Shown: positions 42,778 through 64,000, counted from the stretch's first letter. The stretch: 64,000 nucleotides of DNA from Acidimicrobiia bacterium (GCA_036271555.1 DATBAK010000084.1:15053-79052); one strand, 5' to 3'. The notes: generated from the letters alone by a model not told the origin. Program-made: numbers and translations.

Positions 42778-42794
42778 GCGCGGCGTCCGTGCGC

Positions 42795-44959: not shown

Positions 44960-45894
44960 ACCGCCGACTCCCGCACGTTGAAGCGCGCCTGCACGACGTC
45001 GCCGAGGAAGTTGAGCGACAGCACCGTGAGGAACAACGCGACGATCGGGCCGAACACGAGCCAGGGTTCAGTGTTGAGAACCGACGCCGAGCTCGCGATC
45101 AGATTGCCCCACGACGGCTTGACGGTCGGATCGACGCCGACGCCGAGGAAGCTCAAGCCGCCTTCGGCGACGATCACCACGCCGATCGCGAGCAGCGCGA
45201 TCGACAGCATCGCGGGAATCACGTTCGGTAACACCTCGCGCACCATGATGCGGGCGTTCTTCGCGCCTTGCGCGCGCGCGGCCATCACGAACTCGCGCTG
45301 CGACCACGTGAGCGTGCTCGCGCGCGTGATGCGCCCGAGCACCGGTGTCGACACGGTTCCGAGCGCGATGATCAGCACGATCTCGGCGGGCAGGTGGGAT
45401 TTCGTCGGATCGCCCCTGAGGAACGCCGTGAGCGCAAGGGCGAGGATCAGCGCCGGCACCGCGAGCAGCACGTCGAACACGGTGCTGATGATGAGGTCGA
45501 TCGTGCCTCTGAAGTAGCCGGCGATCAGGCCGAGCGTCCCACCGATCAGGATGCCGGCGAGCACCGAGCCGAGCCCGATCTCGAGCGACGTGCGCGCACC
45601 CAGGACGAGGTTCGAGAACTCGTCGTGGCCGACGTCGTCGACGCCGAGCAGGTGGCCGTGGGTGAACGGCTTCGTGCTCGTGTCGTCGAGAAAGACGGTG
45701 CGGTAGCCGTGGATGCCCGGGAGCAAGGTCCCGAGCACTGCGCCGATCAGCACGAGCGCGAGCCAGATGATCGCGAACCAACCGCCGAAGCCGAGCCGAC
45801 GGTTCGGCGCGACCTCGACCCGGGCGGCCGCGTCGGGCGACCCCTCGGGTTCGGTCAGCAGTTCGGGCGACGCCTCGAAACCGATGGTGCTCAT
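44956..45894 (-). CDS. ABC transporter permease (OppC/DppC-like)
   Basis: HLLGVDDVGHDEFSNLV followed by the EAA-type loop REFVMAARAQGAKNARIMVREVLPN. Confidence 0.9.
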   Translation of the reverse strand: MSTIGFEASPELLTEPEGSPDAAARVEVAPNRRLGFGGWFAIIWLALVLIGAVLGTLLPGIHGYRTVFLDDTSTKPFTHGHLLGVDDVGHDEFSNLVLGARTSLEIGLGSVLAGILIGGTLGLIAGYFRGTIDLIISTVFDVLLAVPALILALALTAFLRGDPTKSHLPAEIVLIIALGTVSTPVLGRITRASTLTWSQREFVMAARAQGAKNARIMVREVLPNVIPAMLSIALLAIGVVIVAEGGLSFLGVGVDPTVKPSWGNLIASSASVLNTEPWLVFGPIVALFLTVLSLNFLGDVVQARFNVRESAV

Positions 45895-45918
45895 GCGGCT
45901 TGTCCGTCCACGTCCTGG

Positions 45919-46875
45919 CTACCGGAGCGCGGCCATGCTGCGCACTCTGGGATCGAGCTTCATGTAGAGCAGGTCGATGAGCGTGTTCACCACGACGTAG
46001 CCGATCGCCAAGATCGCGACGATGCTCTGCACCGCGATGAACTGCTGCGCGCGGATGTTCGATGCGAGCAACAGGCCCATGCCCGGGAGCTGGAAGACGA
46101 CCTCGATCACGACTGCACCGCCGATGAGCGCGCCGACGTTGAGCCCCGCGACGGTGAGCACCGTGAGGCTCGAGGGACGGAGCGCGTGCCGCCAGAGGAT
46201 GTGCCGAGACGGCATCCCTTTGGCCTTCGCCATTGTGATGAAGTCTTCCTGCAGCGTCGCGATCATGTCGGTCCGCAACAGTCGCATGTAGCCCGCGATC
46301 TGTCCGGTCGCGAGGCTGATCGCCGGGAGCGCCATGCTCCTGAAGTGTTTGACCAGACCCTGCGACGGGTGCGCGTACTGACCCGGCGGTAACCATCTCA
46401 GCTTCACGCCCACGACGTAGGCGAGCACGAGTCCGAGGGCGAAGTCGGGGAACGCGATCGCGCCGAACGCGGTCGCGTTCACTAATCGGTCGAACCAGGT
46501 GCCTTCCCAGAACGCGCTGAACACCCCTAACGGGATCGCGATCAGCACCGTGAGGATCAGCGAGTACAGCATCAGCTGCAGCGACACCGGCAGCGAGCTG
46601 CTGACATCGGGCGCGACCTTGTCGACGCCCGACGAGCGGTAGTAGTTGCCGAGGTTGCCGTGCGAGAAGTTCGACAGCCAATGCCAGTACTGCTCGTAGA
46701 CCGGCTCGTCGAGATGCGCGTCGTGCTTCAGCTTGTCGCGAACGCTCGCGGGTGCGAACGCGGCGATCGTCGTGACCGGATCACCCGGAAGGAGGTCGAG
46801 CAGCAGGTACGAGAAGAACGACACGCAGATCAGCACGACCACGAGGCGACCGAGTCGCCGCAGCCAGAAGCCCAC
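45919..46875 (-). CDS. ABC transporter permease (OppB/DppB-like)
   Basis: FFSYLLLDLLPGDP, followed by EDFITMAKAKGMPSRHILWRHALRP. Confidence 0.9.
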   Translation of the reverse strand: MGFWLRRLGRLVVVLICVSFFSYLLLDLLPGDPVTTIAAFAPASVRDKLKHDAHLDEPVYEQYWHWLSNFSHGNLGNYYRSSGVDKVAPDVSSSLPVSLQLMLYSLILTVLIAIPLGVFSAFWEGTWFDRLVNATAFGAIAFPDFALGLVLAYVVGVKLRWLPPGQYAHPSQGLVKHFRSMALPAISLATGQIAGYMRLLRTDMIATLQEDFITMAKAKGMPSRHILWRHALRPSSLTVLTVAGLNVGALIGGAVVIEVVFQLPGMGLLLASNIRAQQFIAVQSIVAILAIGYVVVNTLIDLLYMKLDPRVRSMAALR

Positions 46876-46933
46876 GTGCCGTTCCCTCCGTTCCTACTGC
46901 TCGAACCGTTCCTCCGTGCGACCGGTCACGCGG

Positions 46934-48646
46934 TCACTTCGACAGCCAGACGCCGGCCGGGTCGATGCCGCTCGTGAAGCCCGGGAACGGCTGGTCGCCG
47001 TTGGGAAGCGGCAGGTTGCCGATGCCGTGGACGTTGTTCTGCGCGGGAACGGTCCAGTCGGAGTACCAACCCCACGCGTCGTAGACCTGCTTCGCGAACT
47101 CGCGGTTGACGTCCTCGTAGTCCTTCGTCCGCTGCGCGACGTCCGTCGCGCTGCGGCCGTCCTCGAGCGCCTTGTTGATCACCGCGTCGTTGAACCCGTT
47201 GAAGTTCACGAGGTTGTCGCACGGCTGTCCGGCGGGCGAGTCGCAGTGCCACCACACCCACTCGGTGTCGGGGTCGAACCCGGCGTGGTTGCGCCACGCC
47301 GTCGCCTGGAACTGCTTGCCGATGACGTCGTTGATGCCCTGCGACTCGTCGACCGACTGCACACCCATCTTGATCCCGACCTGCGAGAGGTAGGTCTTGA
47401 TGAGGTCGATCGTCTTCAAGCCTTCGGGGTCGGTGCCCGGGGACAGGTACGTGAAGGAGAGGTCCTTGCCCGTCTGCTGCTTGTACATGGCGACGTATTG
47501 CTTCGCCTTCGTCGGGTTGTACTGCGGCAGGCCCGAGTCCTTGAGGTAGCCCATCACACCCGGACCGAACGGACCCTGCGCGAGCGGGCTCACATCCTTG
47601 TTCCGGAGCTTGTTCTCCTGCGGCGCGTTCACCGCGTACGCGAACGCGAGCCGCGCGTTGATGTTGTCGAACGGTGGCTTCGTCACGTTGAACAACGTGT
47701 ACGCGAGCTCCGGGTACTTCTGCGACTCGGTGAGCTGGATCTTGTGCGATGCGGCCAGCGAGCGGTACTGCACGATGTTGATCGCGCCGTCGTCCAGAGC
47801 AAGGCTGATGTTGCCCGACTGGATCCCGTTCAGCATCGTCGAGCTGTCGACGATCGGCTTGAACGTGATCTGGTCGAGGTACGGCAGCTGCACGCCGTTC
47901 GCGTCCTTGCGCCAGTAGTTCGGGTTGCGCGTCGCGATGAACGCGTCGTTCACCTTCCAGCTCTTCTCGATGAACGGCCCGGTGCCGACGAGGTGCTTGG
48001 CACAGTTGTTCTTGTCGTCGAGCTGCGCCTGTCCCATCATGCCGACGCGAGCCGCGCCGTAGAGGTATGCGGGGAACGCGGTCCACGGCACCGTGTCGAC
48101 CTGCACGGTCATCGGGTCGACGACCGTCGTGCTCTTGACGTAGGCGCCGAACACGAACTTGAAGAGCAACGGTGCCCGGTTCGGGTACGCGCCGCGGTAG
48201 GCGTCGAGGTTGTTCTTCACGACGGTCGCGTCGAGCGCGGTGCCGTCGGAGAACTTGATGTTCGGACGCAGCTTGATCGTCCACTGCGTGTTCGTCGCGT
48301 TCGGCGTGACCGACTCCGCGAGCATGCCGACGTACTCGTCCTTCGAGTTCGGCACCGTCAGCGTGTCGTAGATGGCGCGGGCCACCTGCTCACCGGAGAT
48401 CGCGAGCTGCGCCTCGGCCAGGCAGTAGCCGGCGCTCGTCTCGGCAGGGAGCGCCCAGACGACCGAGCCGCCTTTGACCGCCGTGCCCGACGTGGTCGGC
48501 GTCGTCGCCGGGTTGTTGCCGTTGGTGCCGTTGGCGCTGCTGCCGCTGCTGGAACACGCGGATGCGACGAGCGCGAGCGCGACGACGAGCGCGGCGCCGC
48601 CGATCCCGATCGTCGAGCGTCGGCGCGCGCGAAGCGATGTGGCCAC
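46934..48646 (-). CDS. ABC transporter substrate-binding lipoprotein, family 5 (peptide/nickel type)
   Basis: GTG at 48646 follows GGGGGGAAC. Has a lipobox (LVASAC) and a family-5 SBP pattern (GGSVVWAL.., TFKLRPNIKFSDGT, DPDTEW). The ORF-track start at 48721 is rejected. Confidence 0.85.
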   Translation of the reverse strand: MATSLRARRRSTIGIGGAALVVALALVASACSSSGSSANGTNGNNPATTPTTSGTAVKGGSVVWALPAETSAGYCLAEAQLAISGEQVARAIYDTLTVPNSKDEYVGMLAESVTPNATNTQWTIKLRPNIKFSDGTALDATVVKNNLDAYRGAYPNRAPLLFKFVFGAYVKSTTVVDPMTVQVDTVPWTAFPAYLYGAARVGMMGQAQLDDKNNCAKHLVGTGPFIEKSWKVNDAFIATRNPNYWRKDANGVQLPYLDQITFKPIVDSSTMLNGIQSGNISLALDDGAINIVQYRSLAASHKIQLTESQKYPELAYTLFNVTKPPFDNINARLAFAYAVNAPQENKLRNKDVSPLAQGPFGPGVMGYLKDSGLPQYNPTKAKQYVAMYKQQTGKDLSFTYLSPGTDPEGLKTIDLIKTYLSQVGIKMGVQSVDESQGINDVIGKQFQATAWRNHAGFDPDTEWVWWHCDSPAGQPCDNLVNFNGFNDAVINKALEDGRSATDVAQRTKDYEDVNREFAKQVYDAWGWYSDWTVPAQNNVHGIGNLPLPNGDQPFPGFTSGIDPAGVWLSK

Positions 48647-48820
48647 GTTCCCCCCTGCTGTCCGAATGCCGTCCGTACCGGTTTGCACCGGGACCCGAGT
48701 GCCTCCGTCTCGTTGTCGCACCGGTCCTCAGCCGGTGTGACGGGAGTCACATTGTGAGTGTATCGGCGCAAGTTAAGGACGCCACGTCGGCCTGTCAATC
48801 GAACCCGCGTTTCTCCCGGC

Positions 48821-49004
48821 TCGGGATCTGGCTCGGGATCTGATCGAGTTCGGTGACGCGTCGCGTCGCCTGAACCGATCAGTTCGCCGGAGCTCTCGGC
48901 CGCCGGTGACGCCGGGTCGATGATCTGATCGAGCTCGGCGACGCGTCGGGTCGATGATCTGATCGAGCCCGGCGACGCGTCGCGTCACCTGAACCGATCA
49001 GTTC
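48821..49004. repeat. cluster of palindromic repeat family B (two full copies 48837-48885 and 48956-49004, one half copy 48922-48950)
   Basis: Units read GATCTGATCGAG-n4-G(T/C)GACGCGTCGCGTC(G/A)C-CTGAACCGATCAGTTC. Each can fold as a long hairpin. Both full copies share a conserved tail, GCnGnAGCnCTCGGC. Confidence 0.7.
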
Positions 49005-49055
49005 GCAGCAGCCCTCGGCTGCCCTGTGGACGGCCCTGTTGGTGCGTGTTCGGCG

Positions 49056-50588
49056 TCAGCGCGCGAGCGTCGCGAGGTTGCGGTGACCGGGCCCGGTCGG
49101 CAGATCGAGCGCCGTCGACTCGAGCTGGACCCGTTGTCCGACGAGCTCCTCGGACTCCGCGCACGCCATCAACTCGGCATCGCTCGACCGCGCGTAGGTG
49201 CGGCACGAACCGTCGGATTCGACGTCACACACGAGCAGCGCCCACTCGGGCCCGCCGTCACGCCCGTGCACGACGGAATACGCGGCGACGGTCGCGTCGC
49301 CGTCCCACGTGTCCGCGATGACCGCTTGATCCACCTCGTCGAGCGCCGCTTGCACGCTCATCTGATCGGGGGGCGTCACGGCCGCAGGAGTCGTCGAGTA
49401 CACGCCGAAGACGTGCTTCGTCATCGTCATGCCGACGCCGCTGACCATGCCCAACGCACCCGGATCACCGCGCAACACGCGCGCCATCTGCGCGATCGAG
49501 TGGGTCATGTACCCGCTGCCCGGACCGCCGTGATACGGCAGCCCGCCGGTGACGCTCAGAGGTCGCGCGTCGTCGGGCTCGAGTCCGAGAGCGTCGCGAG
49601 CAAAGTTCAGGCTGCTGCCGAAGCAGCTGTAGAGATCGAAGTGCGCGAGATCGTCGATCGCGACGTTCGCCTGTTGCGCGGCCGCGCTCGCAGCCGCCGC
49701 CATCGCCGGCGATCGCCACATCTCGCGATGCTCGGCGACGTAGACGGGATCGGTCGCGTAGCACCATCCCCGCAGGTAGACCCGTAGGTCGGCGGGGACA
49801 CCGAGCGCGTCGGCGCGCTCGTGACTCGTCACGATCAACGCGGCCGCCATGTCGATGTCCATGATCGCGACCATGTACTTCGTGTACGGGTAGCCGACCA
49901 TGCGGTTGCCGGCCGACGGCGTGACGAGCTCGTCGGCGGTCCGCTCGATCGGAAACCACGCGTCCGGATTGCGCGCCGCGATCTCCGTCAGCGGCGCCAT
50001 CATCTCGCCGATCTCACGTCGGTAGAGGTCGAGTGGTTCTGCGCGGTGGGCGCGGCGCGCGTTGTCGAACACGGCGAACGTGAGCCAGGCCTGGAACACC
50101 TCGTGCGCGATCTCGGCCGGGTGCATCGGCGCTTCCCACGGATACGGCCGCTTCTCGGCGGGCCGGAACGAATAGGCGATGCGCTCGCCCTTCTGCTTCG
50201 CCTTGCGTTGCGTGGCGAGCGCTTCCGCGCTCGCGATGAGGACGACGTCGCGCTCGTTCTTCAGGATCGCTTCGGCCGCCGTCGACACGAGCTGCTGTGT
50301 CGTGGTGCCACCGATCCCCGAGTAATACCGGTGGCGGGGCGAGATGCCGAGCGTCTCGGCAAGGCGCGCGGGCGGGTCGTCGTACTGCGTGGTCTGGCAG
50401 TAGACGACGTTGACACTGTCGACCGCGTTCAGGACGTCGCGGCCTCGCGAATCGGTTGCGGCCGCGCGCGCGACGTCGACCCACATGGCGAGCGGCTCGG
50501 GTGCACCGGCTTCGCCAACGTCGTCCGGGTGCCAGGTGCGACTGCCGACGCCGATGATGCAGGGTGTGCGCGGATCGACCGCGTTCAT
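49056..50588 (-). CDS. thiolase-like protein (acetyl-CoA acetyltransferase family) with C-terminal OB-fold-like extension
   Basis: ATG at 50588 sits in an ATGA overlap with the hydratase stop. The thiolase-fold pattern is present (CIIGVGSRTW.., GGLPYHGGPGSGY, GVGMTMTKH), plus a ~110-aa extra C-terminal domain. The ORF-track start at 51392 is rejected. Confidence 0.7.
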   Translation of the reverse strand: MNAVDPRTPCIIGVGSRTWHPDDVGEAGAPEPLAMWVDVARAAATDSRGRDVLNAVDSVNVVYCQTTQYDDPPARLAETLGISPRHRYYSGIGGTTTQQLVSTAAEAILKNERDVVLIASAEALATQRKAKQKGERIAYSFRPAEKRPYPWEAPMHPAEIAHEVFQAWLTFAVFDNARRAHRAEPLDLYRREIGEMMAPLTEIAARNPDAWFPIERTADELVTPSAGNRMVGYPYTKYMVAIMDIDMAAALIVTSHERADALGVPADLRVYLRGWCYATDPVYVAEHREMWRSPAMAAAASAAAQQANVAIDDLAHFDLYSCFGSSLNFARDALGLEPDDARPLSVTGGLPYHGGPGSGYMTHSIAQMARVLRGDPGALGMVSGVGMTMTKHVFGVYSTTPAAVTPPDQMSVQAALDEVDQAVIADTWDGDATVAAYSVVHGRDGGPEWALLVCDVESDGSCRTYARSSDAELMACAESEELVGQRVQLESTALDLPTGPGHRNLATLAR

Positions 50589-51532
50589 CGACCCTGCCAG
50601 TTGGGCTTTCGTTTCTCGGCGAACGCCTTGGGCCCTTCCCGCGCGTCCTCCGTCTGGAAGATCGCGCTCGAGAGCCGGCTCTCCTTCTCGAATGCGGTGC
50701 GCAGCTCCTTGCCGAGCGACTCGAGGATGACCGCGCTGTTCGCGATCGCGGTCGTCGCCGTCTCGGCGTTGCCAGGCTCGATCGTCAGCAGCGCTTCCCG
50801 CAGCTTGCGCACCGCGCCACGCAGTTGCTTCGTCGTGTCCTCGTCGTGGTACAGGCCCTGCAGCGCGCTCTGCTTCGTCGCCTTCACCGCGAGCGGCGCG
50901 TTCGCGGTCATGCGGTTCGCGAACTCGTACGCCTTGTCGAGCAGCTGCTCTCTCGGGACGATCGCGTTCAGGAGGCCCATGTCGTAGGCGCGTTGCGCGT
51001 CGACGAGATCCGCACAGAGCAGGAACTCCATCGCCTGCGCCCACGGCACTTGGCGCGGCAGTCGGACCGTCGTTCCGCCGCCCGCGAACAAGCCGCGCTT
51101 CGGTTCCATGACCGCGAACTTCGCTTCGGGGCACGCGACCCGGATGTCGACACCGCCGAGCATCTCCATGCCGCCGGCGGTGCAGAAGCCGTTGACCGCA
51201 GCGACGACGGGCTTGTAGAGCGGCCAGTTGCGGAGCACGGCGCGAGTGCCGTCGTCGAGGCGATAGCCGTTGATCTCGGTCAGGCCTTCTTCCGCGATCT
51301 GCTTCTGGAGCTTCGTGATCTCGGGGACGTACTTCTTGAGGTCCGCGCCGGTGAAGAACGCGTCGTCGACGCCCGTGATGATCGCAACCCACGCGTCGTC
51401 GTCCTGATCGAATCGCTCCCAGGCTTCGCGCAGGAGCTTGAAGTGCTCCATGTCGCAGGAGTTGCGTGCTTCGGGCCGGTCGATCGTGATGAGCACGACA
51501 TGCGAGTCGTTGCGCTCGTAGTGAATCGCCAT
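50585..51532 (-). CDS. enoyl-CoA hydratase/isomerase (crotonase) family protein
   Basis: VVLITIDRPEARNS, FFTGADLK, AAVNGFCTAGGMEM and EPKRGLFAGGG. Confidence 0.85.
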   Translation of the reverse strand: MAIHYERNDSHVVLITIDRPEARNSCDMEHFKLLREAWERFDQDDDAWVAIITGVDDAFFTGADLKKYVPEITKLQKQIAEEGLTEINGYRLDDGTRAVLRNWPLYKPVVAAVNGFCTAGGMEMLGGVDIRVACPEAKFAVMEPKRGLFAGGGTTVRLPRQVPWAQAMEFLLCADLVDAQRAYDMGLLNAIVPREQLLDKAYEFANRMTANAPLAVKATKQSALQGLYHDEDTTKQLRGAVRKLREALLTIEPGNAETATTAIANSAVILESLGKELRTAFEKESRLSSAIFQTEDAREGPKAFAEKRKPNWQGR

Positions 51533-51556
51533 ACGCGTGGCACGTTAGGGGGTGCC

Positions 51557-51612
51557 GGGGATCTGATCGAGTTTGACGACGCTCGCGCGTCGCCTGGCTC
51601 GATCAGATCCCC
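51557..51612. repeat. palindromic repeat family B, copy B2
   Basis: GGGGATCTGATCGAG-tttgacgacgctcgcgcgtcgcctgg-CTCGATCAGATCCCC, with perfect 15-bp arms. Confidence 0.7.
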
Positions 51613-51725
51613 CGTACCCCCGCTTCCCCGTCGCACCCGCGTGCGATCCTGCGCGCGGTTGTCGTCGAATCGACGCGACCCGGCTTCCCCCGTCGATGGT
51701 CTTCGAGCAGAACCGGGAAGCCTCC

Positions 51726-52664
51726 ATGAAGCGACGAATGGCCGACGGCGCGATCGCACGCGTCGCCGCACTGCAACACGGCCTCTTCACGCGCGCCGAC
51801 GCCCACTCGGTGGGCCTCACTGACCGGCAGCTTCGACTGCGCGTCGCGCAGGGTCGGATCGAGCGACTCTCACGGCACGCGTTTCGGATCGCCGGACACC
51901 CGACCACCTGGCGACAGCGGCTACTCGCCGCCTGTCTCGCCGCCGGCCCCGGCGCGGCCGCTTCCCATCGAAGCGCCGCCGCACTCCACCGCTTCGACGA
52001 CTTCGCGCCGGGCGTCGTCGAGATCACCGTGCCGCAAGGTCGACGCGACTTCCGCATGGACGGTGTCATCGTGCACAGCTCCGCGTACTGGGGCGATATC
52101 GACGTGTGCGAGGTCGACGGCATCCCCGTTTCGACTCCGGAACGCACGCTCTGCACGCTCGCGGCGGTGACCGACGAGGCGCGCGTCGAACACGCGCTCG
52201 ACGGTGCGGAACGCGACGGCACCGTCAGGCGAGAGGACGTCGCCGAAGCGCATGCCGACGTTCGCGAGCGGGGCCGCAATGGCGTCGCTGCGCTCGGACG
52301 ATTGCTCGAGAAGCGCGCCGACCTGTTGGCAACGCCGCACAGCGTGCTCGAACGACGGTTCCTGCGCGTGCTCGAGGAGCACAACCTTCCGCGGCCCGAG
52401 TGCCAGGTTCCGGTGCGACGGCCCGACGGCCGGATGGCGTATCTCGACTCCGGCTATCCCGATCTGCGTCTCTTCTTCGAGCTCGACGGCAACGTCGCGC
52501 ACGCGACGCCGGCACAGCGATCCGCCGACAACGTGCGCGCCAACGCGCTCGGCTTGCGCGACATTCGCATCGTGCGGTTCACGTATGAGCAGGTCGTCCA
52601 CCAGCCCGAGATGGTCGCGACAACGGTGCGCGCACACCTTCGCGAGCGGCGACGGGCGGCGTGA
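51726..52664 (+). CDS. AbiEi-like N-terminal domain / DUF559 (Vsr-like endonuclease fold) protein
   Basis: GLFTRADAHSVGLTDRQLRLRVAQGRIERL is the AbiEi_4-type wHTH. The C-terminal ...LERRFLRVLEEHNLPRPECQV...DGNVAH...D..R.N.L...G..IVRFTYEQV is the DUF559 pattern. ATG at 51726 follows GGGAAG. Earlier in-frame starts are possible. Confidence 0.7.
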   Translation: MKRRMADGAIARVAALQHGLFTRADAHSVGLTDRQLRLRVAQGRIERLSRHAFRIAGHPTTWRQRLLAACLAAGPGAAASHRSAAALHRFDDFAPGVVEITVPQGRRDFRMDGVIVHSSAYWGDIDVCEVDGIPVSTPERTLCTLAAVTDEARVEHALDGAERDGTVRREDVAEAHADVRERGRNGVAALGRLLEKRADLLATPHSVLERRFLRVLEEHNLPRPECQVPVRRPDGRMAYLDSGYPDLRLFFELDGNVAHATPAQRSADNVRANALGLRDIRIVRFTYEQVVHQPEMVATTVRAHLRERRRAA

Positions 52665-52676
52665 CGCGGCGCCGGC

Positions 52677-52725
52677 GAACTGATCGAGCGAGGTGACGCG
52701 GACGGTCGCTCAACTCGATCAGATC
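52677..52725. repeat. palindromic repeat family B, copy B3
   Basis: GAACTGATCGAG-cgaGGTGACGCGgacggtcgctcaa-CTCGATCAGATC. Confidence 0.65.
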
Positions 52726-52778
52726 CAGGTGGCCTCCCGAAACTGACGGGCGTGTCATGTGCGTGGCAGGATGCGGAC

Positions 52779-53756
52779 GTGACCGATCGACCGAAAGCGC
52801 TGGTGACGGCGCCGTTCCGCGGCGAAGGACTCGACACGCTTCAGGGTCTCGCCGACGTCGTGCTCGATCCTTGGATCGACCAGCCGACGCTCCGTTTGTA
52901 CAAAGCCGAGCAGCTCGCGGAACGGGTGCGGCAGGAGGGCGCGACGATCCTGATCGTCGAGTCCGACTCCGTGAAGGGACCCGTCTTCGACTGCGACCTC
53001 ACGGTCATCGGCTCCTGCCGCGGCGACCCGAACAACGTCGACATCGAAGGCGCGACGAAGGCCGGGATCCCCGTCCTGCGCGCGCCCGGACGCAACGCCG
53101 ACGCCGTCGCGGAGATGACCGTCGCACTCCTCTTCGCGACCAACCGCTTCATCGTCGCCGCGGACCGCGACGTCAGAGCCGAGCAGGTGTACGCGGGCGG
53201 CAAGATCCCCTACCAGCGCTTCCGCGCCTGGCAACTCGCCGGGCGCACCGCCGGCGTCGTCGGACTCGGCGCGGTCGGGCGCGCGACGAAGTGGCGCCTC
53301 GAAGGCCTCGGCATGAAGGTCATCGCCTACGACCCGTACAACTCCGAAGCGACGCACTCGCTCGACGACCTGCTCGCGGAGTCGGACGTGGTGTCGATGC
53401 ACGCGATGGTGACGCCCGAGACGACGGGTCTGATCGGCGCCGCGCAGTTCGCGAAGATGAAGCCCGGCTCGATCTACGTCAACTCGGCGCGCGCCGCGCT
53501 GCACGACACCGACGCGCTCGTCGCGTCGTTGCAGTCGGGTCATCTCGGCGGCGCCGGTCTCGACCACTTCGTCGGGGAGCACCTGCCGAAGGATCACCCG
53601 CTCTGCTCGATGGACAACGTCGTGCTGACACCGCACATCGGCGGCGCGACCTACGACACCGAGGCGAACCACTCGAAGCTCATCGCCGACGACGTGCGAC
53701 GCATCCTCGCCGGCGAGAAGCCCGTCAACTGCGTCAACCCGGAGGTGCTCGCCTGA
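52779..53756 (+). CDS. D-isomer-specific 2-hydroxyacid dehydrogenase (PGDH-like)
   Basis: NAD motif GVVGLGAVGRA and the catalytic region SMHAMVTPET...NSARAAL...TPHIGGAT. The start is uncertain: GTG at 52779 was chosen, and GTG at 52752 is also in frame. Confidence 0.8.
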   Translation: MTDRPKALVTAPFRGEGLDTLQGLADVVLDPWIDQPTLRLYKAEQLAERVRQEGATILIVESDSVKGPVFDCDLTVIGSCRGDPNNVDIEGATKAGIPVLRAPGRNADAVAEMTVALLFATNRFIVAADRDVRAEQVYAGGKIPYQRFRAWQLAGRTAGVVGLGAVGRATKWRLEGLGMKVIAYDPYNSEATHSLDDLLAESDVVSMHAMVTPETTGLIGAAQFAKMKPGSIYVNSARAALHDTDALVASLQSGHLGGAGLDHFVGEHLPKDHPLCSMDNVVLTPHIGGATYDTEANHSKLIADDVRRILAGEKPVNCVNPEVLA

Positions 53757-54412
53757 TGGCGACGAAGCTCACGGCCCAGGAGACGAAGGAAATGCTCCTG
53801 GCGACCGCGAAGGAGATGATCGCCAAGGGTCTCGTGGAGGGCACGGCCGGCAATTTGTCGGCACGTTTGCCCGACGGAAACGCAGTACTCACGCCGTCGT
53901 CGCTCGCGTACGAGACGATGACGCTCGACGACCTCGTCGTGTGCGACCTCGACGGCAACGTCCTCGAAGGCACGCGCAACCCGACGACCGAGAAGGCGTT
54001 GCATCTCGGGTGCCTGCGGAAGCACGAGGACATCAACGCCGTCATTCATTCGCACGCGATGCACTGCACGATGTTCGCGGTCACGCACCAACCGATCCCG
54101 TGTGTGATCGAGGAGTTCGACGTGTACGTCGGCGGTGACGTGCCGGTCGCGAACTACAAGGTCACCGGCTCGGACGACCTCGGTGAAGAGGTCTCGAACT
54201 GGGTCGCCGACCGCGCCGCGGTGTTGATGGCGAACCACGGGCTTCTGACCGTCGGCAAGGACCCGCAGGACGCGCTGAAGATCGCGATGCTGGTCGAGCG
54301 CACGGCGCGGATCATCTGGGGAGCCAAGTTCATCGGCGAGCTCGTGCCGTTGCCGGATTCGACGATGAAGAAGTTCGCACCGATCTACAAGTTCCTCCGC
54401 TCCCAGGGCTGA
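53756..54412 (+). CDS. class II aldolase/adducin family protein
   Basis: GTAGNLSAR, HSHAMHCT and ANHGLLTVG. The ATG overlaps the upstream TGA by 1 nt. Confidence 0.85.
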   Translation: MATKLTAQETKEMLLATAKEMIAKGLVEGTAGNLSARLPDGNAVLTPSSLAYETMTLDDLVVCDLDGNVLEGTRNPTTEKALHLGCLRKHEDINAVIHSHAMHCTMFAVTHQPIPCVIEEFDVYVGGDVPVANYKVTGSDDLGEEVSNWVADRAAVLMANHGLLTVGKDPQDALKIAMLVERTARIIWGAKFIGELVPLPDSTMKKFAPIYKFLRSQG

Positions 54413-54474
54413 GCCGCACCGCCGCGGCTCCGTCGGCCGCACGACCGGTCGCGCCGCCGACCAGGGCTTTCTCG

Positions 54475-54524
54475 GATCTGATCGAGAAAAGTGACGCCCG
54501 CGCGTCACCCAACTCGATCAGTTC
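54475..54524. repeat. palindromic repeat family B, copy B4
   Basis: GATCTGATCGAG-aaaaGTGACGCccgCGCGTCACccaa-CTCGATCAGTTC. The right arm overlaps the last codons and the stop of the convergent O-methyltransferase gene. Confidence 0.7.
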
Positions 54525-55183
54525 GCAGACCGCTTGCGGAGGAGGGTGAGGCCGTCGGAGACGGGGAGCATGACGGCGTCGACGCGGGGATCGCTCGCGA
54601 CCAGATCGTTGAACGCGCGGATCGCGACCGCGTTGTCGCTCTGATCCGAGTCGTCGACGACGCGCCCGCTCCACAACACGTTGTCGACCATCAACAACCC
54701 GTTCGGCCGCAGCCTCCGAACCAGCTGTTCGAAGTAGGCCGGGTAGTTCGGCTTGTCGGCGTCGATGAACGCGATGTCGATCGTCTCCTCTTCCGGCAAC
54801 TTCGACAACGTGTCGACCGCGGGCGCGATCACGAGATCGATCCGGTCCGCGACACCCGCGCGTTCCCAATGCGCGCGCCCGATCGACGTCCACTCCTCGC
54901 TCACGTCGCAACACAACAACCGGCCGCCCCGGACCAACCCGCGCGCGATGCACAGCGCGGAGTAGCCGGTGAACGTCCCGACCTCGACGGCCGAACGCGC
55001 CCCCACCAACTGCGTGAGCATCGTCATGAACGCGCCCTGCTCGGGCGCGATCTGCATCCCCGACACCGCTCCCAACGACGCGGTCGCCTCGATCAGCGAC
55101 TGCTGAATCGTGTCTGGCCGTTGCCCGTGATCGAGCAGGTACTCGTGGATCTCGGGCGATAGGAAGAACGACTTCGGGCTCAT
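54518..55183 (-). CDS. class I SAM-dependent O-methyltransferase (caffeoyl-CoA OMT-like, family 3)
   Basis: ATG at 55183. Contains VEVGTFTGYSALC, FIDADKPNY and DNVLWSG. The ORF-track start at 55378 is rejected. Confidence 0.85.
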   Translation of the reverse strand: MSPKSFFLSPEIHEYLLDHGQRPDTIQQSLIEATASLGAVSGMQIAPEQGAFMTMLTQLVGARSAVEVGTFTGYSALCIARGLVRGGRLLCCDVSEEWTSIGRAHWERAGVADRIDLVIAPAVDTLSKLPEEETIDIAFIDADKPNYPAYFEQLVRRLRPNGLLMVDNVLWSGRVVDDSDQSDNAVAIRAFNDLVASDPRVDAVMLPVSDGLTLLRKRSAN

Positions 55184-55397
55184 TTCCGCACCGTACACAG
55201 GAACGCAGGAGTCGACGCGTGCACGTCGCACGCACCTCACGCCGGCCTCGAGGCAGTTGTGGTGCGCGCTGCCCACTCTTCCTGGCGGGACCTCGCAGGT
55301 TGCGGTCCGCGACGAGAAACGACTTCGGAGGTCGCGTCGCAGGCACGCTCGGAAGCCGAAGCCGGCGTCACCACGCAACGCAAACCTCTCTGCGTAG

Positions 55398-55427
55398 CTG
55401 ACACGAACGTCAGTCAGCGTTTACCAT
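55398..55427 (+). promoter_or_regulatory. candidate promoter (-35 CTGACA, -10 TACCAT) overlapping a shared operator-like box CTGACACGAACGTCAG
   Basis: The box lies at 55398-55413. TACCAT at 55422-55427 sits 18 nt after CTGACA and about 47 nt upstream of the GTG at 55474. The same 15-mer recurs at 62326-62340. Confidence 0.35.
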
Positions 55428-55473
55428 CCCGACACCCGCAGGCCCGGGGGGCCGCCTGCAATCCGGAGACCGC

Positions 55474-57693
55474 GTGACCGATCTGCAATCAGCCGGCCAG
55501 CCCGAGGGCAGCGCCGCTTCGCTCGCCGCCACCGTGCTCGACGAGGAGGCCGCCCGCCAGGCGGCCCAGGCTCGCGCCAAGGAACAGATCATCTTCCCGG
55601 ACGACCTGCTTCCCGGCGTCAATTCCGAGCCGATCGATTTCAAGGACGCGTTCGCCAAGGGCGGCGTCTTCATGTTCGTGGTGCTGGGCCTGCTGATCTC
55701 CCTCGACCAGCTCACCCTGAACGCGGTCCAGACGCTCGAGCCCGAGCTGCGCTCGACGTTCCACATCAGCAGCGGCTCGGTCGTGTTCATCACGTCGGCG
55801 TCGAGCCTCTTCTACGCGCTGGGCGCGGTCCCGATGGGTTGGCTCGCCGACCGGATGAAGCGGGTGCCGATCGTCGCGTGCGCGAGCCTGGTGGCGGCGC
55901 TCTGCACGTTCCTCTCCGGACTGGCCGGCAGCGCGTTCGTCTTCTTCTGGATCGTCTGCGCCACCGGCATCGCGAAGGCGGACGGCATCGCGGTACACCA
56001 GCCGCTCCTGGCCGACAACTATCCGATCGGCATCCGGGCTCGGATGTCGGCCGCCCTGAACATCGGCCAGCAGGTGCTCGGGAACATCAGCCCGGTACTC
56101 GTCGGCGCGATCGCAACCTGGGTCGGAGGCAAGGAAGGCTGGCGCTGGGCGTTCTTCGTGCTCGGCATTCCGGGCGGCATCGTCGCGATCGCAGCGTTCT
56201 TCATGCGTGAGCCCCCGCGCGGACAGTACGAGAAGGACGACGTCCTCGGCGAGGTCATCGAGGACGAGAACCCGATGCAGCCGTCGATGGAGGCCGCGTT
56301 CGCGAGGCTGAAGAAGATCGCCACGGTGCGCACGTCGATCGCCGCGTTCGCGGCGCTCGGTTTCGGAATCTTCGCGCTCGGCAGCCTGCAGGTGCTCTAC
56401 CTGAACGACACGCTGCACGTCACCAACACGTTGCACCGCGGATTCATCCTCAGTCTGGCCGGCTGGTCCGCGGTCCCGTTCCTCTATCCGGTCGGCCGCT
56501 ACTTCGACCGCACCTACCGGAAGAATCCGGCGAAGGCGCTCACGCTCGTCGGGCTGCTCATCCTGCCGTCCGCGCTGTTCACGCCGTTGCAGGTGTCGAC
56601 GCACAGCACGACGATGTTCGTCATCTGGGGCATCCCGCAGGCGGTGCTCACGGCGTGCGCGTTCGCGATGGTCACGCCGGTGCTGCAGGCCGTGTGCCCG
56701 TACCGGCTCCGCGGGCTCGGGATCGCGATGGGCGTGATGTACATCGTGTTCATCGGCGGATTCGGCGGCGCGATCCTCGCCGACTTCTTCACCAACTCTT
56801 TCGGTGTGCGCACGACCGTGTTCATCCTCCTGGTGCCGACCAGCATCATCGGCAGCCTCCTCCTGATGAACGGCGCCCGGTTCATCCGCCACGACCTCTC
56901 GCTCGTCGTCGAGGAACTCCTCGAAGAACAAGAGGAGCAACGCAAGCGCTCGGTCGAAGGCGCCAGCACTCCGGTGCTGCAAATGGTCAACACCGACTTC
57001 TCCTACGGTCCCGTACAGGTCCTGTTCGACGTCAACTTCGAGATCCATCGCGGTGAATGCGTCGCCCTGCTCGGCACGAACGGCGCGGGCAAGTCGACGA
57101 TTCTGCGCTGCATCAGCGGGCTCGAGGTGCCCGAGCGTGGAGTCCTGCGACTCCACGGTCGCAACATCACGTTCGTCGCCCCGGAGCAACGCGTGAAGCA
57201 CGGGATCGTGCAGCTTCCCGGCGGGAAGGGCGTGTTCCCCAGCCTCACGGTCATGCAGAACCTCACCGTCGCGGCGCGGCTACGCGGCGGCACGAGTGAC
57301 GAGCTCGAGGCCCGCATCGCGAACGTGCTCGAACTGTTCCCCGAGCTCGCCGAACGGCCCAAGCAGCAGGCGCGGAGTCTCTCCGGCGGCCAGCAGCAGA
57401 TGCTCGCACTCAGCCGGGCGCTGATGCAGGAGCCCGAGATCCTCTTGATCGACGAGCTCTCGCTCGGCCTCGCGCCCGTCATCGTCCAGCGGCTGCTCGA
57501 GCTCGTCGACCAGCTCCGCGCCCGCGGCCAGACCATGATCATCGTCGAACAGTCGTTGAACGTCGCCCTCGCGATCTCCGACCGGGCCATCTTCCTGGAA
57601 AAGGGTCAGGTCAAGTTCGAAGGTGACGCACAGGAGCTCATGGAGCGCGACGACCTCGCCCGCGCGGTCTTCTTCGGCACCGAAGGCGGCTGA
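55474..57693 (+). CDS. chimeric MFS-transporter domain fused to LivF-type ABC ATPase
   Basis: Residues ~60-470 contain about 12 hydrophobic helices and MFS motif A (GWLADRMKRVP). An acidic linker follows (EELLEEQEEQRKR). The C-terminal NBD has Walker A GTNGAGKST, signature LSGGQQQM and Walker B LLIDELSLGLAP (LivF-like). Confidence 0.8.
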   Translation: MTDLQSAGQPEGSAASLAATVLDEEAARQAAQARAKEQIIFPDDLLPGVNSEPIDFKDAFAKGGVFMFVVLGLLISLDQLTLNAVQTLEPELRSTFHISSGSVVFITSASSLFYALGAVPMGWLADRMKRVPIVACASLVAALCTFLSGLAGSAFVFFWIVCATGIAKADGIAVHQPLLADNYPIGIRARMSAALNIGQQVLGNISPVLVGAIATWVGGKEGWRWAFFVLGIPGGIVAIAAFFMREPPRGQYEKDDVLGEVIEDENPMQPSMEAAFARLKKIATVRTSIAAFAALGFGIFALGSLQVLYLNDTLHVTNTLHRGFILSLAGWSAVPFLYPVGRYFDRTYRKNPAKALTLVGLLILPSALFTPLQVSTHSTTMFVIWGIPQAVLTACAFAMVTPVLQAVCPYRLRGLGIAMGVMYIVFIGGFGGAILADFFTNSFGVRTTVFILLVPTSIIGSLLLMNGARFIRHDLSLVVEELLEEQEEQRKRSVEGASTPVLQMVNTDFSYGPVQVLFDVNFEIHRGECVALLGTNGAGKSTILRCISGLEVPERGVLRLHGRNITFVAPEQRVKHGIVQLPGGKGVFPSLTVMQNLTVAARLRGGTSDELEARIANVLELFPELAERPKQQARSLSGGQQQMLALSRALMQEPEILLIDELSLGLAPVIVQRLLELVDQLRARGQTMIIVEQSLNVALAISDRAIFLEKGQVKFEGDAQELMERDDLARAVFFGTEGG

Positions 57694-60600
57694 TGCTCGC
57701 CTCGTTCTTCCAGCCTCAGATCACGACTGCAAACCTGCTGTTCATCGGCGTGGTGCAGGGGTTGATCATCTCGGTGCTCGCAATGGCAATCGTGCTGATC
57801 TACCGGTCGACGCGCATCATCAACTTTGCAGTCGCCGACATCGGCCTCCCCGCGGCCGCGCTCCTCGCGGTCATGGTCGTCAATTCGCACTTCCCGTATT
57901 GGCTCGCCTTCACGCTCGCGCTGCTCACCACCACGGCCGCCGGCGCCGTGATCGAGATGGTGGTCATCCGGCGGCTCGCGAAGGCGCCCCGCGTCATCGT
58001 GCTCGTTGCAACCATCGGCGTCGCCGAACTCATGCAGGCGGTCGTGCGCACGCTGCCCGAATACCAGGCCGGAAGGTTCCAGACGACCTTCCCGACGCCC
58101 ATGAGCTCGCAATGGACGATCTCGTCGCTCTTCCATCTCAGCGTCGCCGGCGTCCACCTGCAGATGACGAACATCGTGGTCACCGGTCCGCAGGTCCTCG
58201 CGCTGATCGTCGTACCGATCGTGACGGTCGGGCTGTGGTGGCTCCTCGGCCACACCGTCTTCGGTGAATCGGTCCGTGCCTCGGCGACCAATCCCGACCT
58301 CGCGCGTCTCACGGGCATCAGCCCGAAGCTGATGTCGACCGCGATCTGGACGATCGGGGGACTGCTGTCGGGCGTCGCGCTCGTGCTCTACGCGACACAG
58401 AGCGGCACGACCGACCTCGTGCAAGTCGGTCCGGAGACGTTGTTGCTCGCGCTGACGGCGGCGTTGATCGGCGGCATGACGTCGTTCCCGCGCACCGTTG
58501 CCGGCGCGGTCGGCGTCGGCCTGCTCTATCAAGTGCTGCTGTACAACTTCCCGAACACACCGGGCCTGGTCGAGTTCGTGCTGTTCATCCTCGTGCTGGC
58601 TCTCGTCGCCCGCATCAGCCGAGCCGACGCGACGACCACCGACACCTTCTCCTTCGCGCCACGCGTGCCTCCCGTGCCCGAACACCTCCGCGAGCTGTGG
58701 TGGGTACGGCGCATGCCCAACCTCGTGGCATGGATCGCGCTCGCCGTCGCGATCGTCGTTCCGCTCGTCACCACGTCGTCGGCGCACCATCAGGCGTACG
58801 CCTTGATCCTGGCGACCGCGATCATCACGGTCTCGGTCACCGTGCTCACCGGCTGGGCCGGTCAGCTCTCGCTCGGGCAGGCCGCGTTCGCCGGCGTGGG
58901 CGCGCTGATCGCGGGCACGCTCGTGCGCGGTGCGACGCTCAACATCGGCTTCCGCTCACACCGGCTCGCCGCCGGCGCGGTGCGTCCGTTTCCGATGGCC
59001 GCCGGCTTGCTCCTCGTCGTGCTCGCGGCGGTCGCGATCAGCACCACCGTGGCGCGGCGCCGCAGCAGGCGAGTCCGCGCGATCGCGGCCTCGGCGGCGG
59101 TGCTCTGCATCGCGGTCGGCGCGGTCGTGTTCCCGGCCGCCATCGACCGATCCGGCACCGTGCACCGCGTGCCGTTCGTCCTCGCGTTGTTCCTCGGCGG
59201 CGCGGTCAGCAGCATCTTTGCCGCCGCGGTCGGCATCGGCGCGCTCCGTGTGCGCGGGCTCCTGCTCGCGATCAGCACGATGGCCTTCGCGATCGCAGCC
59301 GAGGTGTACATCTTCCCCCGCCCGCTCTTCGTCGGCCTGGAAGGCTCGACGAGCGGCGAGCTCGACCGGGGCAAGCTGGGACCGGTCGACCTGACGTTCC
59401 ACAACCGCGCGTACTACTACTTCGCGCTCGGCGTCCTGGTGCTCGTGCTCCTACTGGTCGGGCACCTGCGGCGAACGGGCATCGGCCGCGCGATCGTCGG
59501 CGTCCGCGAGAACGAGGCGGGAGCGGCTGCGTTCACCGTGTCGCCGACGCGAGCGAAGCTCACGTCGTTCGCGGTCGCCGGCTTCGTCGCGGGACTCGGC
59601 GGCGGTGTCCTCGCGGGAGCAGTCCAGAACTTCGACTACACGAACGCGTTCTTTCGCGTCGAAGACTCCCTCTCCCTCGTCGCCATCGCCGTGATCGGCG
59701 GCCTGGGCAGCCTGGCCGGCGCGGTGACGGGCGCGTTGTGGGTCGTCGGCCTTCCGCTGTTCTGGCCGAAGAACGACACGGTGGAGTTGCTCACCTCGAG
59801 CATCGGACTGCTCATCGTGTTGCTCTACGTCCCGGGTGGCTTCACCCAGCTCGGGTACGCCGCGCGCGGCCACATCCTGCGCTGGGTCGAGCAGCGATTG
59901 CCCGAGCGGCCGGCGAAGACCGTCACGGCCCCACCGGTCTCGCTCTCGGTGCGCGCGACCACCCCCCCGCCGACGAACGGTGACGGCAGCGCGCTGCGCA
60001 CGATCGGGCTCGACGTCGAGTTCGACGGCATCGTCGCGGTGAACAATGTCGACTTCCACGCCATGCCGGGAGAGGTGATCGGCCTCATCGGCACGAACGG
60101 CGCGGGCAAGTCCACGCTCTTGAACGCGATCGGCGGCTACGTGCCGAGTCGGGGCAAGGTCGAACTGCTCGGCGGCGACGTCTCGGGACACGCGGCGTAC
60201 CTCCGTGCCCGGGCCGGGCTCGGCCGCACGTTCCAGGCCGCGACGTTGTTCCCCGAGCTGACGGTCCGCGAGACCGTGCAACTGGCGCTCGAAGCGCGCG
60301 GGCGCACATCGTTCTGGGGCTCGTTGCTGTTCTATCCCGGGTCGATCGCCAAGGAGCGCACGCGGCGCGCCGAGGCCTCCGAGCTCATCGACTTCCTCGG
60401 GCTCGGCCGCTACGCCGACCGGTTCATCGTCGAGCTCTCGACGGGCACTCGTCGCATCGTCGAGCTGACGTCGATGCTCGCGGTGCGTCCCCGCGTCATC
60501 TGCCTCGACGAGCCGACGGCCGGTGTTGCGCAGCGCGAGGCCGAGGCGTTCGGACCGCTCATCAAGCGGATCCAGAACGAGCTCGAGGCGACGCTCATCG

Positions 60601-60791: not shown

Positions 60792-60827
60792 GTCGGGCGC
60801 CGGGTTCCGTTCGTACGAGGACGTGTC

Positions 60828-62285: not shown

Positions 62286-62319
62286 CTCAGAACCCCCCGG
62301 TTCGGCGCCCTCGCCGCGC

Positions 62320-62349
62320 ACTCTATGACACGAACGTCAGCAAAGTCAC
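62320..62349 (-). promoter_or_regulatory. candidate promoter (-35 GTGACT, -10 TAGAGT) with the shared box in its spacer
   Basis: Minus strand reads GTGACT-TTGCTGACGTTCGTGTCA-TAGAGT. The plus-strand 15-mer TGACACGAACGTCAG (62326-62340) is identical to 55399-55413. It lies about 35 nt upstream of the ATG at 62285. Confidence 0.35.
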
Positions 62350-62389
62350 CACCCTCTCGCTCGCTCGCTCGCGCTGGCGTGCGCTTCCC

Positions 62390-63988: not shown

Positions 63989-64000
63989 GCCCCATCGTCG

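Follow-up and report, generated by a model that had tools for sequence, protein, structure and literature searches.

Why does a palindrome of about 50 bp recur in the gaps between genes along a few kilobases of a bacterial chromosome, and what is the gene that two of its copies enclose? Both questions arise from the 64-kb stretch of DNA analysed here, from an uncultured Acidimicrobiia bacterium of the Actinomycetota (GCA_036271555.1, DATBAK010000084.1:15053-79052; hereafter the window, about 70% G+C overall), where a family of nested palindromes, family B, occupies four intergenic sites within 5.7 kb. Two copies, B4 and B5, flank a gene, G3, whose product combines an AbiEi-like DNA-binding module with a nuclease domain. 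The explanation that we lean towards, with little more than even confidence, is that the B elements are cognate DNA sites of the G3 protein, carried in a compact B4-G3-B5 unit, and that nuclease action and repair keep the copies alike. This palindrome-gene-palindrome unit is probably selfish, comparable to repetitive extragenic palindromes (REPs) and their REP-associated tyrosine transposases (RAYTs).

A palindrome-gene-palindrome unit between conserved genes

Family B is represented in the window by five full copies and one half copy, which together with G3 make up the following features.

51560..52725, plus strand: palindrome-gene-palindrome unit B4-G3-B5, 1166 bp, absent in relatives at 78% identity to G4, the gene 3' of G3
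51560..51609, no strand assigned: B4, full copy with GATC at both ends, in the divergent gap between the start of an enoyl-CoA hydratase (ECH) gene (51532) and the start of G3; left end of the unit
51696-52664, plus strand: G3, 322 aa, AbiEi_4 + AbiEi_1 + DUF559 protein, the candidate cognate protein
52677..52725, minus strand: B5, full copy in the opposite orientation, 12 nt past the G3 stop codon; right end of the unit; 64.0 bits on the minus strand in a covariance model of the family
48837..48885, plus strand: B1, full copy, 3' of a thiolase-like gene and 5' of a SBP_bac_5 (SBP) gene; 66.2 bits
48886..48904, plus strand: small GC hairpin duplicated along with B1, its counterpart lying at 49005-49023 (68-nt unit, 88% identity, 48837-48904 vs 48956-49023)
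48922..48950, plus strand: half copy (left outer and left inner arm), product of a 34-bp tandem duplication spanning 48915-48982
48956..49004, plus strand: B3, full copy, local duplicate of B1; 62.9 bits
54475..54524, plus strand: B6, full copy, in the convergent gap between an aldolase gene and an O-methyltransferase (OMT) gene

The pairing of G3 with B elements recurs in related genomes, which are metagenome sequences named Acidimicrobiia or Actinomycetota and are compared through G4, a 2-hydroxyacid dehydrogenase (2-Hacid_dh) gene. Where both flanks of G3 are covered, B copies lie on both sides of the gene (4/4: window, L121, L122 and L146), and the upstream copy is also present in L137, whose contig reaches only the G3 start. 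Two relatives at 78% G4 protein identity, L156 and L157 (contigs of 4.0 and 4.7 Mb), are without G3: in the former the ECH gene directly adjoins 2-Hacid_dh, in the latter other genes lie 5' of the dehydrogenase, and no B copy was found in the ~21 kb examined of each. The distance from the ECH start codon to a conserved CTGAC-N6-GTCAG motif is 13 nt in L156 vs 1210 nt in the window, 1166 of which are accounted for by the interval from B4 to B5, so that B4-G3-B5, with a B element at either end, behaves as a single unit that was inserted or deleted.

The CTGAC-N6-GTCAG palindrome used as a landmark, which is degenerate in the window (52743-52758), occurs once in the ECH/2-Hacid_dh gap of the G3-less L156. 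It lies 5' of 2-Hacid_dh in L121, L122, L156 and L157, with a second copy beside the ECH start in L122, L146 and L137, and genomes with G3 carry it on both sides of B-G3-B. The pair could stem from duplication of an operator, or else represent a target duplication that is long and has diverged.

G3, whose start is fixed by the 100% identical protein P0121, encodes an AbiEi-like winged-helix DNA-binding module and an AbiEi C-terminal domain, fused to a Vsr/DUF559 nuclease (PD-(D/E)XK, EDxHD-like). AbiEi models of PADLOC match residues about 12-207 (E down to 6e-34), and Pfam recognises AbiEi_4 in 19/19, MTES_1575 in 16/19 and DUF559 in 15/19 aligned homologues. When an AlphaFold (AF2) model of the protein (pLDDT 88.8) was compared by Foldseek, its N-terminal part matched the AbiEi antitoxin 6y8q and Rv2827c (1zel), and its C-terminal part matched the catalytic domain of the homing endonuclease I-Bth0305I (3r3p, TMt 0.79) and the DUF559 protein 3hrl (TMt 0.72); the C-terminal part also matches PvuRts1I, and 3hrl by profile (E 1.2e-5). 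None of the residues E219, D251, E262, H269, D278 and R281 varies among 19 homologues with identities as low as 37%, which argues for an active nuclease.

NCBIfam has no family for G3. The gene 3' of it is the dehydrogenase, not a toxin; a DUF1814 match, which would denote an AbiEii toxin, was found for none of the called neighbours of those Acidimicrobiia homologues that were fetched, and the annotation shows no such gene next to that of a more distant homologue from Tsukamurella. A search with a G3 profile returned 10,993 clusters at 50% identity (E <= 1e-30), the source-named ones being from Actinomycetota. A G3 profile found no relatives in viral contigs, and in a tblastn search of plasmids G3 had no match and the Tsukamurella protein matched only itself at full length.

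Family B in the window and its relatives

Every copy reported by the sequence-only reading of the window proved to be present. With at most one mismatch, the outer 12-mer GATCTGATCGAG occurs 11 times in the window against 0.62 expected, a number reached in 0/100 shuffles. In a covariance model based on 25 copies the five full ones reach 62.6-66.2 bits on the better strand (E about 1e-15), and a scan of the whole 64 kb with this model gave a next-best match of only 14.8 bits and no further B copies. This difference (62.6 vs 14.8 bits) indicates that family B is real and, within the window, confined to the 5.7-kb stretch, in line with the earlier impression, gained by eye, that there were no copies elsewhere. 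The statement that a copy occupies every intergenic gap is also correct in substance: the four real gaps (SBP/thiolase-like, ECH/AbiEi-DUF559, AbiEi-DUF559/2-Hacid_dh and aldolase/OMT) each hold a copy, and the other two junctions are gapless. The gaps differ in setting, for B1-B3 lie 3' of one gene and 5' of the next, B4 between divergent starts, B5 between tandem genes and B6 between convergent ends, where, as had been noticed, it covers the OMT stop codon (54518-20, minus strand) and the last OMT codon.

What had been described as a triple cluster at 48821-49004 does contain these copies, but it does not record three insertions, since B1 and B3 form a 119-bp local duplication that includes the small 3' hairpin and the half copy stems from a 34-bp tandem duplication. 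Three nested local duplications can be traced around B1-B3 (48818-48842, 48915-48982 and 48837-49023, with units of 13, 34 and 119 nt), which suggests slippage or repair activity at the site. The part of the window that holds the B cluster, about 44000-64000, is one where G+C falls from about 0.72 to 0.64-0.71 (mostly 0.66-0.68).

Orthologous B copies are found in four relatives (L121, L122, L137 and L146). Gene order is kept in L121 and L122, whose G4 proteins are 89% and 88% identical to that of the window, and the orthologous gaps contain B-like elements, of which L121 has two and L122 four. A scan of metagenome contigs with a strict pattern, which fixed GNGAC on one arm only, identified 12 contigs with true members; 2 of these (L137, L146) are the same locus, and the other 10 carry 11 copies in other gene contexts, beside unrelated housekeeping genes that include those for an acyl-CoA synthetase, TetR, TrpB, GH15 and a NuoF-like protein. 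In every true member the opposite arm, left free by the pattern, reads GTCAC or GTCGC. A loose pattern (GATCTGATCGAG-N22-34-CGATCAG) applied to genome contigs was uninformative, yielding at least 120 chance matches in coding sequence, with lengths mostly in multiples of three and no inner stem (L001-L120). Family B is dispersed and apparently of low copy number; as a rough guide, the ratio of 10 non-orthologous to 2 orthologous contigs would suggest some 10-20 copies per genome. One contig, L128 (Ga0137405_1333300), has ends (226-552 and 4055-4378, with B copies at 431-474 and 3944-3988) that form an inverted duplication carrying a MarR-like open reading frame (ORF) and a B copy; the duplication is either genuine or a product of misassembly.

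Copies are alike within a source. With each metagenome sample taken as one genome, identity at variable positions is 0.694 within vs 0.597 between sources, a difference that 0/5000 permutations reach, and positional orthologues of B copies share only 0.576. Pair 29-37, for example, is A/T in 4/4 copies of L122 vs G/C in 4/5 copies of the window, the exception being B5, in its left arm only.

The oriented consensus of the 25 copies is (G/C)ATCTGATCGAG-N4-GGYGACGCG-N2-3-CGCGTCACC-N3-4-CTCGATCAGTTCG, and the ends of the aligned elements read (G/C)A(T/A)CTGATCGAG. Each element consists of two 23-24-bp inverted arms with 2-4 bp between them, an arm being composed of the outer block CTGATCGAG, four variable bases and an inner GGYGACGC. 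The elements are polar, in that GATCTG on the left corresponds to CAGTTC on the right, giving a T.T mismatch on folding; if an element were extruded, the conserved T.T (GATC vs GTTC) and C.A positions would be mismatches, which is suggestive of a fit to a Vsr-like enzyme, speculative as this is.

Do the palindromes act as hairpins? On single-strand DNA folding three of the five copies are far better than shuffles (z -4.4, -4.7 and -8.3, the last belonging to B4, whose palindrome reaches 51548-51621 with 35-nt arms and folds at -32.8 kcal/mol), whereas B3 and B5 are no better. Covariation across the 25 copies is modest, with 81% of cells paired vs 79% in shuffles and the 4-nt spacer complementary in about half of the copies, so that no RNA or single-stranded DNA structure is claimed here; symmetric changes in the arms are explained equally by a protein contacting them as two monomers. 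CTGATCGA and its complement are invariant in all 25 copies while internal pairs are complementary in only about half, a pattern that points to sequence recognition rather than stem stability.

These observations bear on the possibility that the copies are factor-independent terminators, or hairpins stabilising RNA 3' ends, that resemble each other through shared ancestry only. The strong predicted hairpins and the location of several copies just past stop codons would suit such a role, one that the sequence-only reading had entertained, but as a general function it is very unlikely: B4, like several of the metagenome copies, has divergent genes starting on either side of it, none of the copies is followed by a T-run or was picked by a terminator and promoter scan, and the arm sequence is conserved beyond what pairing demands. 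An Rfam search of 44000-58000 gave no match at E <= 1.

The presence of a palindrome in each gap of a short array also recalls an integron-like cassette array devoid of integrase, in which the B elements would be attC-type recombination sites. Their stem, internal loop and stem, the GAAC...GTTC near their ends and the direct repeats that flank G3 in three lineages add to the resemblance. The flanked genes, though, are housekeeping genes in conserved synteny, whose order is unchanged in the B-free L156, which largely refutes the idea; gene orientations are mixed, where the mobile promoterless cassettes of an integron, each ending in an attC site, share one; no integrase is encoded among the genes scanned at 34.6-64 kb, and GTTCGCC does not fit GTTRRRY, the R' consensus of attC. 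We consider this explanation barely credible.

Three further resemblances were dropped. In matS (GTGAC-RNY-GTCAC) the spacing differs from the 7-9 nt found here, and to our knowledge MatP is not an actinobacterial protein; the GAAC and GTTC of a LexA/Cheo box (GAAC-N4-GTTC) are here about 40 bp apart; and Dam methylation at GATC is not needed to explain the motif.

Homologues with palindromes of their own

Genes homologous to G3 adjoin palindromes in other lineages as well, listed here with identities to the window G3, except for Tsukamurella, which is compared with the homologue P0234.

L158/159, 51%: between a NUDIX gene and a hypothetical gene; palindromes on both flanks
L160, 50%: beside a lactamase_B gene; palindromes on both flanks
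L161/162, 44%: between acyl-CoA dehydrogenase and thiolase; palindromes on both flanks
L164, 40%: between birA and an aminotransferase gene; palindromes on both flanks
L163, 37%: after ilvC; a single upstream palindrome, with a solo copy at a distance of 7.5 kb
L165/166, 40%: before gatC; upstream, two palindromes in tandem
EL451_RS09515 (WP_068740572.1) of Tsukamurella tyrosinosolvens NCTC13231, 27.5% to P0234: on a piece of chromosome filed as a plasmid; palindromes on both flanks (39-41 bp) and solo copies on two other fragments

Together with the window clade these make eight lineages, each with its own nested palindrome of 39-53 bp (42-53 bp in the four Acidimicrobiia lineages with palindromes on both flanks). 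The outer arms differ completely between lineages while architecture and unit length are constant, and the gene lies in unrelated housekeeping surroundings in each. Palindromes occupy both flanks in five of the homologue lineages (L158/159, L160, L161/162, L164 and Tsukamurella). The upstream palindrome lies 21-101 nt 5' of the gene start in seven lineages and, in Tsukamurella, ends about 60 nt before the annotated start. A repeat search blind to the gene ranks the flanking pair first in L158, L160 and L161, with repeats of 51-66 nt, 73-94% identity and a spacing of 1013-1119 nt, beside which the 1117 nt from B4 to B5 may be set. Solo copies are known from three lineages: the window clade; L163, where the solo copy shares identical 14-bp outer arms with the upstream one and has a different but self-complementary inner stem; and Tsukamurella, where one is placed between convergent genes and the other between divergent genes, both away from the chromosome fragment with the homologue. 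T. tyrosinosolvens is a cultured organism that carries a complete palindrome-gene-palindrome example.

Some observations on these genomes stand apart. L165 contains a different palindromic family (TTCTGGTCCGGGAATCCGGGGC...), with copies at 1481-1528 and 19346-19401 that are 18 kb apart and do not adjoin the G3 homologue. An inner core, GCCCGCTGAGCGG(G)C, is common to L165 (9840-9854) and the Tsukamurella locus L167 (4895-4908), lineages that are very distant and whose outer arms are unrelated. The T. tyrosinosolvens NCTC13231 'plasmids' of PLSDB (NZ_LR134451.1, NZ_LR134454.1 and NZ_LR134464.1) carry pks13, PTS and ligD/Ku genes and are evidently mislabelled chromosome fragments.

The sequence-only reading had likened family B to REPs or to miniature inverted-repeat transposable elements (MITEs). 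As to form and intergenic dispersal, in orthologous gaps as well as beside unrelated genes, the likeness stands; a GTAG head, a Y1 transposase and a target-site duplication are missing, and copy number appears low. In the 25-copy alignment the ends lack a GTAG (GT(A/G)G) head, and the search for target-site duplications that had been proposed found none that is consistent, the best combination of boundary and length matching the flanks in only 28% of the 25 copies, at 2 nt. Generic selfish palindromes of this kind, moved by another enzyme and linked to G3 incidentally (for example because mobile genes land in repeat-rich gaps), would account for elements that are intergenic, palindromic, dispersed and locally duplicated in tandem, and for the other palindromic families in related genomes. 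An incidental link is nonetheless hard to reconcile with a different palindrome in each of eight lineages, always adjoining a homologous gene, and with arm motifs that occur nowhere else in four of the homologue loci, within 12-19 kb around the gene. No transposase or integrase was found among the about 19 predicted genes scanned at 34.6-64 kb (a further ORF at 42789-43955, probably spurious, being outside this count). We regard this alternative as distinctly improbable.

A stronger competitor, though one that we still judge unlikely, is pure regulation, with the B elements serving as operators of a small regulon and G3 as a transcription factor only, without nuclease-driven spread and without selfishness of the unit. 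The one thing common to all eight lineages is a palindrome 20-100 nt upstream of the gene start; the AbiEi family autoregulates through inverted repeats (PMC7319586); copy number looks low; and solo copies mostly have a gene starting on one side or both, with divergent promoter gaps making up five of the nine sites that could be fully resolved. Operators alone, on the other hand, do not account for B6, its L122 orthologue and one Tsukamurella solo copy, which lie between convergent ends with no promoter, or for the full copy that directly follows the stop codon in five lineages, without regulatory rationale. Nor would a plain regulator be expected to have invariant nuclease catalytic residues, to occupy a different housekeeping context in each lineage while being absent from the same site in L156, or to have sites whose variable spacer positions, too, are homogenised within genomes.

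Several points weigh against our preferred explanation, in which G3 is a nuclease acting on the B elements. Binding, cleavage, mobility or homing of G3 is deduced from homology and position. The joint absence of gene and palindromes from the outgroups is phylogenetically confounded (one clade vs two outgroups), and neither a target-site duplication nor polymorphism between close strains was found, so that mobility can only be inferred. Copy number looks low, since the four sites of the 64 kb all lie near G3 and about four were detected in Tsukamurella, numbers as compatible with a small regulon as with a mobile family. A downstream copy is lacking in two of the eight lineages, and the sole invariant feature, the upstream palindrome, is explicable by plain autoregulation. 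The eight lineages were examined near the gene, with three loci re-checked in the gene-blind search; the test for concerted evolution depends on one genome per metagenome sample; and other palindromic repeat families exist in these genomes, as in L165.

Known systems, a possible cycle and the gene neighbourhood

With G3 between two copies and its homologues beside palindromes of their own, the earlier suggestion that the repeats are recognition sites for a DNA-binding or nicking protein is its best-supported part, the binding itself being presumed. The closest analogue in logic is REP/RAYT, and the closest in parts are AbiEi operators and Vsr-like/EDxHD homing endonucleases.

Like REP/REPIN-RAYT systems, family B consists of short, extragenic, imperfect palindromes with polarity, and a single-copy gene for a site-specific DNA enzyme is bracketed by repeats that are dispersed elsewhere; in both, the repeat sequence co-varies with the protein lineage and copies are homogenised within a genome. 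The enzyme there is an HUH Y1 transposase, whereas G3 combines an AbiEi winged helix with a Vsr/DUF559 PD-(D/E)XK nuclease (AbiEi_4, AbiEi_1 and DUF559/MTES_1575 only). REPs also have a GTAG head, hundreds of copies and inverted doublets, whereas B has no such head and apparently a handful of copies, the flanking copies are direct in three lineages, and the host belongs to the Actinomycetota.

The likeness to AbiEi operators, known from Streptococcus agalactiae AbiEi and Mycobacterium tuberculosis Rv2827c, extends to both protein and DNA. Over its N-terminal ~200 residues G3 matches AbiEi in sequence as well as in fold, and two ~23-bp inverted arms, a few bp apart, lie upstream of an abiEi-family gene, a layout established by experiment for AbiEi (PMC7319586). 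There, the promoter of the AbiEi gene contains a pair of inverted 23-bp repeats, spaced by 3 bp, to which AbiEi binds, one monomer to each arm; the 23-bp repeats bound by Rv2827c have 13 bp between them; and the family autoregulates through such repeats (PMC7319586). Given the shared layout, G3 would be expected to bind one monomer per arm. Unlike the AbiE type IV toxin-antitoxin system, a bicistronic operon with an AbiEii toxin (a DUF1814 nucleotidyltransferase), G3 has a fused nuclease and no such partner; and unlike AbiEi operators, the B elements include a second copy past the stop codon and solo copies by unrelated genes, in an insertion-like setting among housekeeping genes.

To free-standing homing endonucleases such as I-Bth0305I (EDxHD/Vsr-like) G3 is linked by the match of its catalytic domain (TMt 0.79), and, like their genes, B-G3 is a small single-gene unit between conserved genes that is present or absent among relatives. 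It differs in that G3 lies in neither an intron nor an intein, its presumed sites are multi-copy in the host chromosome, and, contrary to the classical scheme, the gene does not interrupt such a site but has an intact one on each side. The only empty site available for comparison is that of the distant L156, where the flanks are too diverged to define a target. With MITEs, finally, family B has in common that it is short, intergenic and nearly all inverted arms, and that a longer, gene-carrying version has the same ends; it differs from them in lacking a target-site duplication and, among the genes scanned at 34.6-64 kb, a DDE transposase, the only longer element that shares B ends being the one that carries G3, and in keeping its orthologous positions between genomes even where the intergenic DNA around it can no longer be aligned.

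A history consistent with these parts would begin with the entry of the ~1.2-kb B4-G3-B5 unit into the gap between two conserved housekeeping genes, or with its loss from there. The upstream copy would most likely serve autoregulation, and G3 would have further sites in the downstream copy and in the solo ones (B1/B3, B6 and those in relatives). Its nuclease domain may nick or cut at B sites, with repair from other copies homogenising the family, and this would explain the likeness of copies within a genome, the two complete copies that bracket the gene, and the solo copies as vacated or target sites. If a break in a solo copy were repaired from a palindrome-gene-palindrome locus, the gene would be copied in and would end up between two complete palindromes; if these recombined in turn, a solo copy would remain. 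Such a homing-like cycle, though compatible with the anatomy of the locus, is speculation.

More tentatively still than the proposal for this locus, and with doubt prevailing, AbiEi-DUF559 fusions, a mostly actinobacterial family, may act as the enzymes of selfish or domesticated elements that form a class not yet described, in which units of ~1.0-1.2 kb encode a nuclease that recognises its own palindrome of ~40-50 bp and spreads and homogenises solo copies, as an analogue of RAYT. Full-text literature searches yielded no account of DUF559/AbiEi fusion genes flanked by their cognate palindromes, and since coverage was incomplete an earlier description is possible. If the association is functional, it would provide a role and a DNA target for a very large family annotated only as 'DUF559 domain-containing' or 'AbiEi family antitoxin domain-containing'. 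Host genes that maintain palindromic repeats are so far known mainly from REP/RAYT in Proteobacteria, and G3 would represent a second, mechanistically different host-resident nuclease gene maintaining its own. It would likewise explain conserved intergenic palindromes in Actinomycetota, including cultivable Mycobacteriales, and offer lineage-specific pairs of a DNA-binding nuclease and a ~50-bp site as possible tools. The complete example in cultured T. tyrosinosolvens NCTC13231 makes the question directly testable.

The other genes of the B stretch, called like G3 by frame-specific GC3 analysis and Pfam, are these.

46934-48721, minus strand: G0, SBP_bac_5 (peptide ABC transporter)
49056 to about 50585, minus strand: G1, thiolase-like
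50585-51532, minus strand: G2, ECH
52752-53756, plus strand: G4, 2-Hacid_dh
53756-54412, plus strand: G5, class II aldolase
54518-55174, minus strand: G6, OMT

An exact look-up of the aldolase protein gave no match. A CRP/GlxR-type palindrome, TGTGA-N6-TCACA, lies 5' of the SBP_bac_5 gene (48738-48753), with counterparts in L121 (about 6114-6129), L122 (about 5825-5840) and L156 (about 7303-7318); it is kept in all relatives while its intergenic surroundings diverge, and is probably an operator of the cAMP-receptor type. Downstream of the B stretch, two ORFs encode unusually fused transporter proteins, one joining an MFS to an ABC ATPase (55474-57693, 739 aa) and the other a branched-chain permease to an ABC ATPase (57693-60791, 1032 aa), and both fusions recur in L121 and L156.

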